From: an uncultured Gammaproteobacteria bacterium
GTDB taxonomy: Bacteria > Pseudomonadota > Gammaproteobacteria > PS1 > Pseudothioglobaceae
DNA length: 64,000 bases
Direction of reading: 5' to 3'
Assembly: GCA_937896195.1 (NCBI GenBank)
Contig: CALBNC010000081.1
Coordinates: forward strand, 5,218 to 69,217
Positions 18,662-27,535 of this stretch are shown here, one piece after another. Both the position numbers and the translations under genes were made by a program. A model generated the notes under the pieces. That model was not told the origin of the DNA. It was given only the letters and a program-made list of their open reading frames with translations, and did no database searches. Each line of letters starts with the position of its first letter. Position 1 is the first letter of the stretch.

Positions 18662-18689
18662 ATTTAACATAATATAAATTATACGAACT
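18662..18689 (-). other. dif site (XerCD chromosome dimer resolution)
   Basis: Minus strand AGTTCGTATAA-TTTATA-TTATGTTAAAT: XerD arm identical to E. coli dif, XerC arm close, 6-bp spacer. Confidence 0.92.
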
Positions 18690-20008: not shown

Positions 20009-20437
20009 CTAAATTATCTTGGAACGAGAAAACTTACTTGTTAATCTATATTTTTGTTTTGGACTTTTTGGTTTTTCTGGAATAGTACGTTCAAAAAAAT
20101 GACAATCCAATAAAGGATTTAAAATATCATTCTTAAATCGATGCTTATGTGTGCGTTTTAAAATTTTCATCAGCTCGTCAGCGCTACTTTCCAGTTGGCA
20201 ATTTCTTAATACTTGAACTTGCTCCGAGCTTATTTCTTCTATCTTGCAACTTAGTCCATTCTTAGTACTTGATACATCTATAGATACTTCTTCATCAATG
20301 TTTTCTTTAAAAATGAATCCTTGCTGTTCAGCTGAATTTGAAATTGAATTATCAAGCTTTAAATCTTTATTCCAACCTTGCTTATCATCAAGTTTTTGAT
20401 CCAACTTTTGTTTTTTGTTTTTTCCAAACCAGGCCAT
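20009..20437 (-). CDS. Hypothetical protein with a Fic-associated C-terminal winged-helix-like domain
   Basis: ILNPLL...ERTIPEKPKSPKQKYRLT matches the tail common in Fic/AlbA-type proteins; no Fic catalytic motif. Confidence 0.6.
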   Translation of the reverse strand: MAWFGKNKKQKLDQKLDDKQGWNKDLKLDNSISNSAEQQGFIFKENIDEEVSIDVSSTKNGLSCKIEEISSEQVQVLRNCQLESSADELMKILKRTHKHRFKNDILNPLLDCHFFERTIPEKPKSPKQKYRLTSKFSRSKII

Positions 20438-25069: not shown

Positions 25070-25423
25070 TTAATAAATAGTTGTTCCGATTAATTGCGTA
25101 ATGATGGATTCTGATGAACTAGAATTTTTAAGGGTTGCTCTAGCGTACCATTTTTCTGCCAGTTGTTCATTTGCTTGAATGCCTTCGCCAGTTAAATAAG
25201 CATACCAAACATTAAACTGAGCTGGCAAATTACCCTGCTTAGCAGCTCTTTGATACCAGTAAAAAGCATTCGCTGTATTTCTAGCAACATCTTGTCCTTT
25301 TTGAAAAATATCAGCCAATGTATATTGAGCCTCAGCATCGCCTAAATAAGCTTGCTGTTGAATTTTAACTATTTCAACTTTCAGCTCTGACTCTGCTAGT
25401 AAGTGTGCATGTATTTGATTCAT
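25070..25423 (-). CDS. Sel1-like repeat protein (2 SLRs)
   Basis: GDAEAQYTLA...AFYWYQRAAKQGNLPAQFN...AEKWYARA; SD GAGGG. Confidence 0.85.
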   Translation of the reverse strand: MNQIHAHLLAESELKVEIVKIQQQAYLGDAEAQYTLADIFQKGQDVARNTANAFYWYQRAAKQGNLPAQFNVWYAYLTGEGIQANEQLAEKWYARATLKNSSSSESIITQLIGTTIY

Positions 25424-25597
25424 GATATTTCCCTCATTTAGTTATTTATTTGAGTCGAATATACCGTGATTTTTATGGCGTGTAAAGACTCTTTTATAAT
25501 AAAAATTAATATGTATTTATTTGTATAAAAATCAATAGGTTATAGTGTTTTTATGGTGATATTACCACTACTTGTATTTTATAACTAATGTAACTCA

Positions 25598-25627
25598 TTG
25601 ACATGGGTGGTAAAAAATAACTATAAT
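25598..25627 (+). promoter_or_regulatory. Consensus sigma70 promoter of the HTH-nadE gene
   Basis: TTGACA (25598-25603)-N18-TATAAT (25622-25627), 33 nt before the ATG. Confidence 0.8.
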
Positions 25628-25660
25628 AGGTAAAAAAACAAGTAAAAATAGGTAAAAAAT

Positions 25661-27535
25661 ATGACCAATAAAACTAAAGACTATCTAACCAAAGTGCGCA
25701 AAAAGACTGGCTTTTCAGACTATAAGATCTCTCAAGAGTACGGTATAAATCAGTCTAATTTAAGTAAATATAAATCAGGGAAATCTTCCCTTTCTGAAAC
25801 TCATGCCTGGCTATTTGCTGATATTTTGAATATTAATCCTGCTGAAGTAGTTGCTAACACTAAGCTCGAGCATGCAAAAATGAAAGGCGACAAATTGAAG
25901 GTTATATTTTGGCAGGAGCAGATAGAAAACCTTTCAAATATCTCAGAGTCTATCAAAATCGATATCGCACAAATTAACCCTATTGTTGGTGATTTAAACA
26001 ATAACGCTCAACAAATCATCGACTTAAGTATTGAAGCTGCTCAACAAGGTGCTGACTTATTAGTTTTTCCAGAATTAGCATTAACAGGTTATTTGCCAGA
26101 AGACTTATTATTAAGAGCTGGATTTATTCAACAAGTTGAAGAAAAGGTTGATTTAATTAAAAACTCTATTCCTGAAACTATGGCTATTGTTTTTGGTGCA
26201 CCTCATAAAAATCAGGGCAATCTATATAATGCTGCATATTTAATCCAAGATCAAGAGGTTCAGACTTATCACAAACAACAACTACCTAACTACAGTGTTT
26301 TTGATGAAAAACGCTACTTTAGCGCGGGTAGTAAACCTTTTGTTTTTACAATCAAAGGTCAGCGTATTGGGCTACTAGTGTGTGCTGATATTTGGAATGC
26401 TGATATAGTTAGTGAAACAGCCAGATATGGTGTTAGCACTATTGTTAGTATTAATGCCTCCCCTTTTCATATTGACAAACATCAACAGAGACTTGACGAA
26501 GTAAAAAAGCGCGTACTTGAAAATCAAGTTGGCTTTATCTATGTCAACCTAGTTGGTGGTCAAGATGAAATTATCTTTGATGGCGGCTCTTTTGCTATGA
26601 ATTCTAAAGCACAAGTCACTCATCAATTACCTTTCTTTAAAGTTACAACTAGCTCATTATCAGCACCATGCGAACCTATTAAAGCGGTAAGTATTGAAGA
26701 AACTATTTACGATGCCTTAGTACTAGCAACTAAAGACTATATTGAAAAAAATGGCGTATTTAATGGTGTAGTTATTGGCTTATCTGGTGGTATCGACTCT
26801 GCATTAACATTGGCGATTGCTGCAGATGCAATTGGTAACGAAAACATTAAGGCTATTATGATGCCCTACACCTATACTTCTAATATGAGTTTGGAAGATG
26901 CCAAGGCTCAAGCCAGCACTATGAATATTGATTATCAAGAAATTAGCATTCACCCAATGGTTGAAAGCTTTAATTCTCAGCTTAGTGAATTATTTAGTGG
27001 CTTACAAGCTGATACCACAGAAGAAAATTTGCAGGCTCGAGTTCGTGGCACCCTACTAATGGCTGTCTCAAACAAGCTTGGAAAGATTGTATTAACAACG
27101 GGCAATAAATCAGAAATGGCAGTTGGATATGCCACCTTGTATGGTGACATGTCAGGTGGTTTTGCCCCGCTTAAAGATGTATCAAAAACCATGGTTTATC
27201 GACTGGCAAAATATCGAAACACTCAATCCTATATTATCCCTGGACGTGTTATTGATCGCGAACCCTCAGCAGAGCTTGCACCCAATCAAACTGATCAAGA
27301 CTCATTGCCACCTTATGACGAGCTAGATGCTATTCTTGAGCTATTTATCGAGAAAAGACTTGCGGTTAAAGATATTGTCAAACAAGGCTTTAATCAAAAA
27401 ACTGTGGAACGTATTAGTCAATTAGTGCTTAATAATGAATATAAACGCAGACAAAGTGCGCCAGGGCCAAAAATTTCAAAAAATGCATTCGGTAAAGAGC
27501 GTCGCTACCCTATGACGTCAAAATTCAAACCTTAA
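25661..27535 (+). CDS. nadE: Glutamine-dependent NAD+ synthetase with an extra N-terminal ~90-aa HTH domain
   Basis: Nitrilase domain (VFPELALTGY, YHKQQLPNY.VFDEKRYF, Cys) and synthetase domain (GLSGGIDSAL, ENLQARVRG, TTGNKSE.AVGYATLYGD, PSAEL, EYKRRQ); N-terminal SDYKISQEYGINQSNLSKYKSGK HTH. Confidence 0.95.
   Translation: MTNKTKDYLTKVRKKTGFSDYKISQEYGINQSNLSKYKSGKSSLSETHAWLFADILNINPAEVVANTKLEHAKMKGDKLKVIFWQEQIENLSNISESIKIDIAQINPIVGDLNNNAQQIIDLSIEAAQQGADLLVFPELALTGYLPEDLLLRAGFIQQVEEKVDLIKNSIPETMAIVFGAPHKNQGNLYNAAYLIQDQEVQTYHKQQLPNYSVFDEKRYFSAGSKPFVFTIKGQRIGLLVCADIWNADIVSETARYGVSTIVSINASPFHIDKHQQRLDEVKKRVLENQVGFIYVNLVGGQDEIIFDGGSFAMNSKAQVTHQLPFFKVTTSSLSAPCEPIKAVSIEETIYDALVLATKDYIEKNGVFNGVVIGLSGGIDSALTLAIAADAIGNENIKAIMMPYTYTSNMSLEDAKAQASTMNIDYQEISIHPMVESFNSQLSELFSGLQADTTEENLQARVRGTLLMAVSNKLGKIVLTTGNKSEMAVGYATLYGDMSGGFAPLKDVSKTMVYRLAKYRNTQSYIIPGRVIDREPSAELAPNQTDQDSLPPYDELDAILELFIEKRLAVKDIVKQGFNQKTVERISQLVLNNEYKRRQSAPGPKISKNAFGKERRYPMTSKFKP

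Follow-up and report, generated by a model that had tools for sequence, protein, structure and literature searches.

We analyzed a 64,000-nt stretch of DNA from an uncultured gammaproteobacterium (contig CALBNC010000081.1, positions 5,218 to 69,217; hereafter the window) and found that its nadE gene, at 25661..27535 on the plus strand, encodes a glutamine-dependent nicotinamide adenine dinucleotide (NAD+) synthetase with an additional repressor-type helix-turn-helix (HTH) module at its N-terminus. Comparison of related genomes indicates that this fusion, HTH-NadE, is real, old and selected, and a phage or mobile-element ancestry of the module is well supported by its homologs. We consider it probable, though far from certain, that the phage-derived module negatively autoregulates nadE through conserved operator-like boxes in the nadE promoter.

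The nadE frame begins with an ATG and comprises 624 codons plus the stop, and its N-terminus reads as quoted in a preliminary description of this DNA, which had noted about 90 extra in-frame residues ahead of an intact NadE. The open reading frame (ORF), its domains and its motifs are all as described there. Pfam assigns residues 102-329 to CN_hydrolase, representing the nitrilase-type glutaminase domain (25952..26665, plus strand, with E138, K205 and C241), and residues 351-598 to NAD_synthase with 247 bits, representing the synthetase (ATP pyrophosphatase) domain (26711..27454, plus strand, with SGGIDS at residues 375-380). E138, K205, C241 and the SGGIDS motif show no variation across 42 orthologs. 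The NCBIfam equivalog model for NAD+ synthase (PRK13981/NF010588) matches with 731 bits against a cut-off of 479, and because its alignment begins only at residue 96, the ~95 N-terminal residues are extra. Judging from these matches, the enzyme part is an intact glutamine-dependent NadE from about residue 98, where the first beta-strand of the glutaminase domain begins in a full-length structure model. The nearest PDB entries to residues 96-624 are 5KHA (E = 1e-156) and 4F4H (E = 1e-151). Type-2 NadE enzymes, including that of Burkholderia thailandensis (4F4H), are dimeric, are feedback-inhibited by NAD+ and bind the regulatory partner PII (PMC7196632). Only one nadE is present in the genome of the window, so that the fused chain is the sole source of the enzyme.

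The extra residues were predicted earlier to form an XRE/Cro-type HTH, and a profile match, a structure model and a structural comparison now point to this fold in the module (residues 1-92, 25661..25936, plus strand). Pfam HTH_3 (PF01381) matches residues 11-62 with 27.2 bits for the full protein, or 29.2 bits for residues 1-100 alone, above the gathering cut-off of 23. AlphaFold2 models residues 1-97 with a predicted local distance difference test score (pLDDT) of 94 and places the HTH helices at residues 5-16, 20-27, 31-39, 46-56 and 60-75, followed by an additional long helix, given as 78-91 or 78-94, that bears a conserved FW(Q)EQ motif. The recognition helix is predicted around INQSNLSKY (residues 29-37). 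Foldseek retrieves, at a probability of ~1, the N-terminal domain of lambda cI, C.AhdI, ImmR, TP901-1 CI, SinR and 434 Cro; the E-values are modest (0.025-0.14), with template modeling scores of ~0.5 owing to the extra helices. The module is also modeled confidently in the full-length protein, where it is linked to NadE by only a few low-confidence residues (pLDDT below 50 at 93-95). These lie in a short linker of low predicted order (residues 93-97, 25937..25951, plus strand) that is variable in the alignment.

Several observations indicate that module and enzyme are made as one protein. The position of the start codon is common to all 22 aligned orthologs, with ATG in 21 and GTG in one. Translation might instead have begun internally near residue 95, a possibility raised in the preliminary description; this was rejected, since codons 60-110 contain no ATG, GTG or TTG that is conserved among the aligned orthologs, none with a Shine-Dalgarno sequence, and two orthologs lack any candidate. 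An artifact, in which two genes were joined by a faulty assembly, a frameshift or the recent loss of a stop codon and NadE is really made from an internal start, is refuted for practical purposes. Two draft genomes are indeed broken within the HTH, but the same frame is found in 106 genomes, more than 25 of them closed, and its recurrence in over 100 independent assemblies excludes a mistake of assembly or a stop codon lost recently. In addition, the HTH is under purifying selection (see below), and no internal start is conserved. In the first of the two broken copies (G004:C69:13718-15586) a single TAA at about codon 70 interrupts the HTH, and in the second (G499:C1:83896-84172) the frame is broken between residues 31 and 38; NadE stays open in both, which could represent sequencing errors or a natural separation or loss of the module.

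The genome of the window belongs to the SUP05 clade, and identical or nearly identical proteins are listed in databases under ‘Candidatus Thioglobus’. Far from being absent in relatives, the fusion is widespread in the family. The N-terminal module was detected in 106 of 122 Thioglobaceae species genomes (71 of the 73 high-quality ones, covering 18 of 19 genera), essentially always as part of an open frame of ~625 codons, and a first sample of 24 same-family genomes contained 23 with a stop-free frame over the full 1-624 residues. Genomes without a module match are mostly incomplete; one clear exception is G022, which is 99% complete and encodes a canonical NadE of 543 amino acids. Outside the family, NadE begins at positions equivalent to residues 88-100 of our protein. 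Among 400 genomes drawn evenly from the class, the fusion occurs in three, all of the same family and including that of the window itself. About 540 database proteins match residues 1-110, and every named one is annotated as ‘NAD+ synthase’; full-text literature searches found no paper describing an HTH-NadE fusion.

Selection on the module was estimated from 22 orthologs as the ratio of non-synonymous to synonymous substitution rates (dN/dS) according to Nei-Gojobori. The HTH (codons 2-70) is under strong purifying selection with a value of 0.049, compared to 0.29 for the linker, 0.12 for the glutaminase and 0.059 for the synthetase. Moreover, 38 of 69 HTH columns show no variation, among them those of the recognition helix INQSNLSKY, which is constant across nearly all genera examined apart from an L34F replacement in two divergent lineages.

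This constraint is lost in a single clade. In four family genomes of ~1.0 Mb, which we take to be the clam endosymbionts of the Vesicomyosocius clade, the HTH shows a dN/dS of 0.96, as expected for neutral drift, while NadE remains constrained at 0.089. The counts of non-synonymous to synonymous changes are ~4:1 in the HTH versus ~1:3 in NadE (Fisher p between 1e-5 and 1e-6 for each of the six genome pairs), and the replacements include the otherwise invariant H48, W50 and W84. In seven larger genomes of the same genus (1.16-1.54 Mb) the HTH is still constrained, with dN/dS of 0.05-0.09. Because the HTH drifts while NadE is conserved, the function of the module must be separable from catalysis. 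Thus, as far as selection can tell, the module is needed in the free-living and most symbiotic members of the family and is dispensable in the most reduced, strictly intracellular lineage.

The region upstream of nadE contains conserved operator-like sites. A sigma-70-type promoter (TTGACA-N18-TATAAT, 25598..25627, plus strand) matches the consensus at 12 of 12 hexamer positions and predicts a transcription start at ~25634-25636 and hence a leader of ~25 nt. Its −10 hexamer is invariant in 20 of 22 orthologs; the −35 hexamer is poor in most of them. Three boxes accompany this promoter. Box A (TTACCACTACTTGTAT, 25562..25577), a palindrome-like sequence of the type TTACC-N6-GGTAA that is conserved across genera, lies upstream and is followed by a second −10-like sequence, TAACTAAT (25582-25589). 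Box B (TTGACATGGGTGGTAA, 25598..25613) covers the −35 hexamer and the spacer and has a conserved GTGGTAA arm. Box C (TAACTATAATAGGTAA, 25618..25633) covers the −10 hexamer and the start-site region and is the same in 20 of 22 orthologs, despite synonymous divergence (dS) of the gene above 1. In an upstream alignment of 21 orthologs, such blocks are far more conserved than the synonymous sites of the gene, and the boxes are kept from genus to genus while the remaining spacer diverges.

The common form of the boxes is TTACC-N6-GGTAA, and some lineages keep the dyad with other letters, as in TACCACTAGTGGTA, ACAAGTACTTGT or ATACCA-N4-TGGTAT, as would be expected under selection by a dimeric binder. 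Even distant genera, in which the HTH is only 56-58% identical, have the same boxes arrayed upstream of a TAACTAAT-type −10 element. The boxes decay together with the HTH. Of 28 genomes with a constrained HTH, 26 contain a site that matches at 8 or more of 10 arm positions, and the majority of these sites are at the conserved positions; the four genomes with a neutral HTH reach at most 7 of 10, at non-homologous positions, and their box C is altered to ...AGGTGTTAA. In the fusion-less G022, the best site has 6 of 10 arm matches.

With a position weight matrix derived from boxes A and B, no intergenic site of the 1.42-Mb genome scores higher than box A (19.4 bits), and the other high scorers lie inside genes. 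Neither matrix nor pattern scans of this genome revealed another intergenic site of comparable score that would point to a wider regulon. One candidate site, C94:8788-8812, was rejected as it lies inside pgk, and other intergenic matches were discarded as regulon members as they precede unrelated genes. A search of 25300-26000 against Rfam with E-values up to 1 yielded no riboswitch or other RNA element.

Upstream of box A, between the nadE promoter and a divergent one, lies a sequence, AATCAATAGGTTA (25530..25542), which in our judgment fits the consensus WATCAANNNNTTR of integration host factor (IHF) and is conserved in nearly all orthologous upstream regions. The divergent promoter-like site (25486-25458) precedes a gene for a Sel1-repeat protein of 117 amino acids (25070..25423, minus strand; Pfam Sel1, E = 7e-16). 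This gene is the conserved divergent neighbor of HTH-nadE, its start and −10 element are conserved as well, and it may be a second target of the boxes.

Homology searches connect the module to repressors of phages and other mobile elements. In the PHROGs collection, which has no curated cut-off, it matches phrog_4441 end to end (E = 3.9e-13, residues 2-92 on model positions 2-90 of 98) and phrog_638 (E = 2.8e-11). An exhaustive search of 1.84 billion representative proteins retrieved free-standing relatives of 112-161 amino acids with 45-53% identity, together with one divergent fusion that belongs to Thioglobaceae; alignment of the fusion modules with more distant free-standing relatives by hhalign gave 99.8% probability (E = 1e-27, residues 3-93). 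The free-standing proteins have the 90-residue module in common and continue with a hydrophobic segment, often with a (F/Y/C)ILC end. Their alignment with HTH-NadE indicates that NadE takes the place of the C-terminal tail of the free-standing repressors. A conserved C-terminal (F/Y/C)ILC following a hydrophobic stretch was observed in P0128, P0129, P0131, P0136, P0140, P0152, P0174, P0193 and P0197, and on such small phage-type repressors it could be a membrane anchor or a lipidation-like signal.

The preliminary description had likened the module to the DUF3693-like small repressors of inoviruses that integrate at dif. The general resemblance to phage repressors is borne out by the matches above and by DUF3693 (PF12472) itself, which is found in 7 of 23 free-standing relatives (best E = 4e-8), although the window protein gives no DUF3693 match at E-values up to 1. 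A closer link to the inovirus-type repressors, however, is not supported. The model for RstR (NF041951) aligns residues 5-92 with its positions 3-85 of 108 at only 28.8 bits (E = 1.2e-6) against a cut-off of 80, and it is matched weakly, always far under the cut-off, by 22 of 34 aligned sequences, so that by its score this match is a resemblance and not membership. Likewise, the nearest free-standing relatives are located next to genes of other elements. P0271, at 53% identity the closest one with genomic context, is oriented divergently to a row of small genes and a gene for a P2 gpA-like replication initiator, and two copies in another gammaproteobacterium have as neighbors a gpA-like gene and genes for an integrase, a methylase and a head protein. 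Inovirus homologs were obtained only for the more distant relative P0138 (Ralstonia RSS30, RSS-TH1 and RSCq; Inoviridae WC36-1), which also matches P2-like Burkholderia phages as well as Vibrio and Stenotrophomonas phage records. With the module itself, tblastn against 50,697 phage records gave no match, and a sequence search of the PDB returned nothing significant (best E = 0.017). Taken together, these comparisons support a phage or mobile-element ancestry well; a specifically filamentous-phage origin is not supported by them.

One free-standing copy was found within the family. In the Thioglobaceae genome G487, a disrupted copy with 51% identity to the window module (L037 1505-1759, corresponding to G487:C117:31504-31758) runs into a TAA after 84 codons, and the surrounding region lacks long ORFs, indicating that it is probably part of a decaying mobile element.

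Upstream of the free-standing relatives we observe repeated boxes of the type TGGAAAATATAC, which are related in form to the nadE boxes. In the metagenome contig that encodes P0271, the intergenic region L039 2640-2790 contains TGGAAAATATAC three times (two direct copies, one inverted) and TAACTACAACAAG twice, an array that probably acts as the operator region of a small element encoding a P2 gpA-like initiator. When the nadE promoter was compared with the upstream regions of relatives, one of four comparisons was marginal, its score being reached by 5 of 500 shuffles. Because the upstream region of this one relative aligns marginally with the nadE promoter, there are hints that promoter and operator arrived together with the module.

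Autoregulation of NadE through DNA binding, as put forward in the preliminary description, thus finds support in operator-like boxes that are conserved and that decay where the HTH does. In the model that we favor, a phage or mobile-element repressor module, consisting of an XRE/Cro-type HTH and a DUF3693-type helix, would have swapped its C-terminal tail for a type-2 NadE, and the NadE dimer would supply the dimerization in place of the lost repressor tail. Brought together in pairs, the HTH modules would occupy boxes A, B and C across the −35 hexamer, the spacer, the −10 hexamer and the start site, so that nadE transcription would be shut off once enough enzyme is present. Because no other promoter in the genome carries such boxes, this would be a single-gene loop, possibly reaching the divergent Sel1 gene. 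DNA binding, its repressive sign and dimerization via NadE are inferred, and autorepression is favored because the recognition helix is invariant, the boxes occupy a repressor-type position, and the boxes decay together with the HTH.

Several points weigh against this model. The boxes overlap the −35 and −10 hexamers, so that part of their conservation is conservation of the promoter. The decay of the boxes along with the HTH amounts to a single evolutionary event, confined to one clade, and the ranking of box A as the best match in the genome is partly circular, because the weight matrix was built from the same sites. The binding unit is ambiguous and could be read as either TTACC-N6-GGTAA or GGTA-W6-TAAC, and the glutaminase N-termini in a type-2 NadE dimer may be too distant from each other for a classical HTH dimer. 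Another factor could bind the boxes. Finally, control of one gene would seem to offer little in return for conservation this strong.

Alternatively, the module could be a domesticated immunity repressor that acts mainly on incoming temperate elements, by superinfection exclusion or silencing, so that the nadE boxes would be an inherited operator and the tether to an essential gene would ensure expression. The nearest relatives, with 45-53% identity, are indeed genes in repressor position within mobile elements, by a gpA-like initiator or an integrase, one such free-standing copy resides in the family genome G487, and the HTH is neutral exactly in the strictly intracellular, vertically inherited symbionts, which meet no phages. 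Nevertheless, such a role appears unlikely. The recognition helix INQSNLSKY differs from ISQSEISKY or IQQTELSRY in the free-standing relatives, and the repeated boxes of these relatives differ from those of nadE. Furthermore, immunity specificities normally diversify fast, yet this helix is invariant in nearly all genera except for the two lineages with L34F, and the window module had no tblastn match in the phage records searched.

The module might also bind the boxes but act as an activator, control chiefly the Sel1 gene, or form a loop with the IHF-like site. Box A lies between the two divergent promoters and beside the conserved IHF-consensus-like site, HTH proteins of the lambda cI type are able to activate when bound directly next to the −35 element, and the poor −35 hexamer of most orthologs would fit a need for activation. 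We regard these variants as improbable, as boxes B and C cover the −35 hexamer, spacer, −10 hexamer and start site, which is the geometry of a repressor. In addition, the essential nadE gene must still be expressed from the same −10 element in the clade where HTH and boxes decay, which argues against a dependence on activation.

In another reading, the module no longer binds DNA and serves as an appendage of NadE for protein-protein contacts or oligomerization, for example in partner docking or in tuning of activity. Protein contacts are an occasional secondary use of HTH_3 folds, only ~5 disordered residues separate the module from the enzyme, and type-2 NadE is known to bind PII (PMC7196632). 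This reading has a low probability in our view, since the most conserved stretch of the module is a canonical recognition helix, and since it leaves unexplained why the dyad boxes in the gene's own promoter decay with the module. The enzyme part is still under purifying selection when the module drifts, which implies that catalysis does not depend on the module.

Another feature of the locus is its proximity to the chromosomal dif site. In the window, dif lies on the minus strand at 18662..18689 (reverse complement AGTTCGTATAATTTATATTATGTTAAAT) and matches the Escherichia coli site at 24 of 28 positions. The preliminary description had pointed to this site, 7 kb from nadE, in connection with dif-integrating inoviruses. 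The proximity itself is a regular feature: in 21 of 24 genomes with the fusion that have dif and nadE on one contig, dif is located 0.8-7.5 kb upstream of the nadE 5′ end, and in the other three at 34-103 kb. The inovirus connection finds no such support, as no inovirus or other phage genes were found between dif and nadE, where we observe genes for a thioredoxin, a protein with a Fic-like C-terminal domain, an amino-acid ATP-binding cassette (ABC) transporter and the Sel1 protein. In one genome (G019), dif lies ~770 bp upstream of the nadE start, leaving little room beyond the Sel1 gene.

The dif motif is single-copy in 26 family genomes. A search allowing up to three mismatches did not find it in the four clam-symbiont genomes of ~1.0 Mb, nor in G480 with its 1,160,782 bp (the set comprising G477, G478, G481, G485 and G480), lineages that may have lost or strongly changed dif. 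In G028, a member of an outgroup family, a canonical nadE without the HTH lies 2.4 kb from dif (C1:193318-197356), so that the proximity may predate the fusion. In this part of the Gammaproteobacteria, nadE may long have been located near the terminus, and the dif-nadE proximity is one inherited arrangement. The data fit, but do not prove, that an element landed beside a terminus-proximal nadE. Between dif and the operon of the amino-acid ABC transporter, we also note an ORF of 142 amino acids (20009-20437, minus strand) with only a Fic-like C-terminal domain (PF21247, E = 6e-15).

Compared to known systems, HTH-NadE appears by analogy to work like NadR, BirA and PutA, and it is related to none of them. 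NadR of Enterobacteria, which combines an HTH with an NMN adenylyltransferase and a ribosylnicotinamide kinase, is likewise an NAD-pathway enzyme with an N-terminal HTH in one chain, represses NAD genes, and is the nearest functional analog. However, its HTH and enzyme domains are unrelated to ours, it controls nadA, nadB, pncB and pnuC, and it senses NAD+; in HTH-NadE, the enzyme is NadE, the HTH is of the phage-repressor type, and the boxes are found at its own promoter only. BirA, the biotin protein ligase and repressor of the bio operon, and PutA also combine enzyme and repressor in one polypeptide and are classical trigger enzymes. In both, dimerization of the enzyme body places two DNA-binding domains on a palindromic operator, as we propose for HTH-NadE, and both are known to couple DNA binding to substrate or product; the folds involved, a winged helix in BirA and a ribbon-helix-helix in PutA, are unlike that of HTH-NadE.

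The two halves of the fusion have separate counterparts. The HTH_3 and DUF3693 repressors of the Burkholderia phages ST79 and phiE12-2 and of RSS-type inoviruses of Ralstonia (phrog_4441, phrog_638, RstR-like) are homologous over the whole 90-residue module and share its helix pattern and the conserved W that follows the HTH, but they are only 100-160 amino acids long and end in a hydrophobic tail where the fusion has NadE. The enzyme part resembles the type-2 NadE proteins 4F4H, 5KHA and NadE2 of A. brasilense, which have no N-terminal DNA-binding domain and whose known control is allosteric, via NAD+ feedback and PII (PMC7196632).

By its sequence, HTH-NadE shows one part of what marks a trigger enzyme, namely an enzyme and a DNA-binding-type domain in one chain and candidate operator sites at its own promoter. 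A more far-reaching version of our model is put forward only tentatively, as we doubt that all of its parts will hold: occupancy of the active site or feedback site of NadE by NAD+, nicotinic acid adenine dinucleotide or glutamine might alter the geometry of the dimer and hence its engagement with the boxes, and promoter, operator and module might have been captured together from a temperate element beside the terminus-proximal nadE. In such a trigger enzyme, box A would possibly be bridged to boxes B and C across an IHF-bent spacer.

The control of bacterial NAD+ synthesis is, to our knowledge, known via NadR, NiaR and NrtR, and that of NadE through allostery only, so that a NadE with its own repressor domain would add a new solution to NAD control. 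What this analysis adds is the within-genus contrast of relaxed selection, the observation that the boxes decay in parallel, a count of dif synteny across genomes, and the genomic surroundings of the closest free-standing relatives. The system is compact, with a 97-residue domain and a 140-bp promoter, and the family contains its own natural control in the Vesicomyosocius clade, in which module and boxes decay and the enzyme is kept. HTH-NadE would represent a clean example of a phage or mobile-element repressor that was domesticated, probably together with its operator, into core metabolism. The SUP05/Thioglobaceae are sulfur oxidizers with small genomes and few transcription factors that are dominant in oxygen-minimum zones and vent symbioses. 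If HTH-NadE is indeed a trigger enzyme, the last enzyme of the pathway would set its own synthesis by NAD+ demand, and the known bacterial NAD regulators NadR, NiaR and NrtR would be joined by a fourth, independent type, at work in a chemoautotroph clade that is among the most abundant in the ocean.

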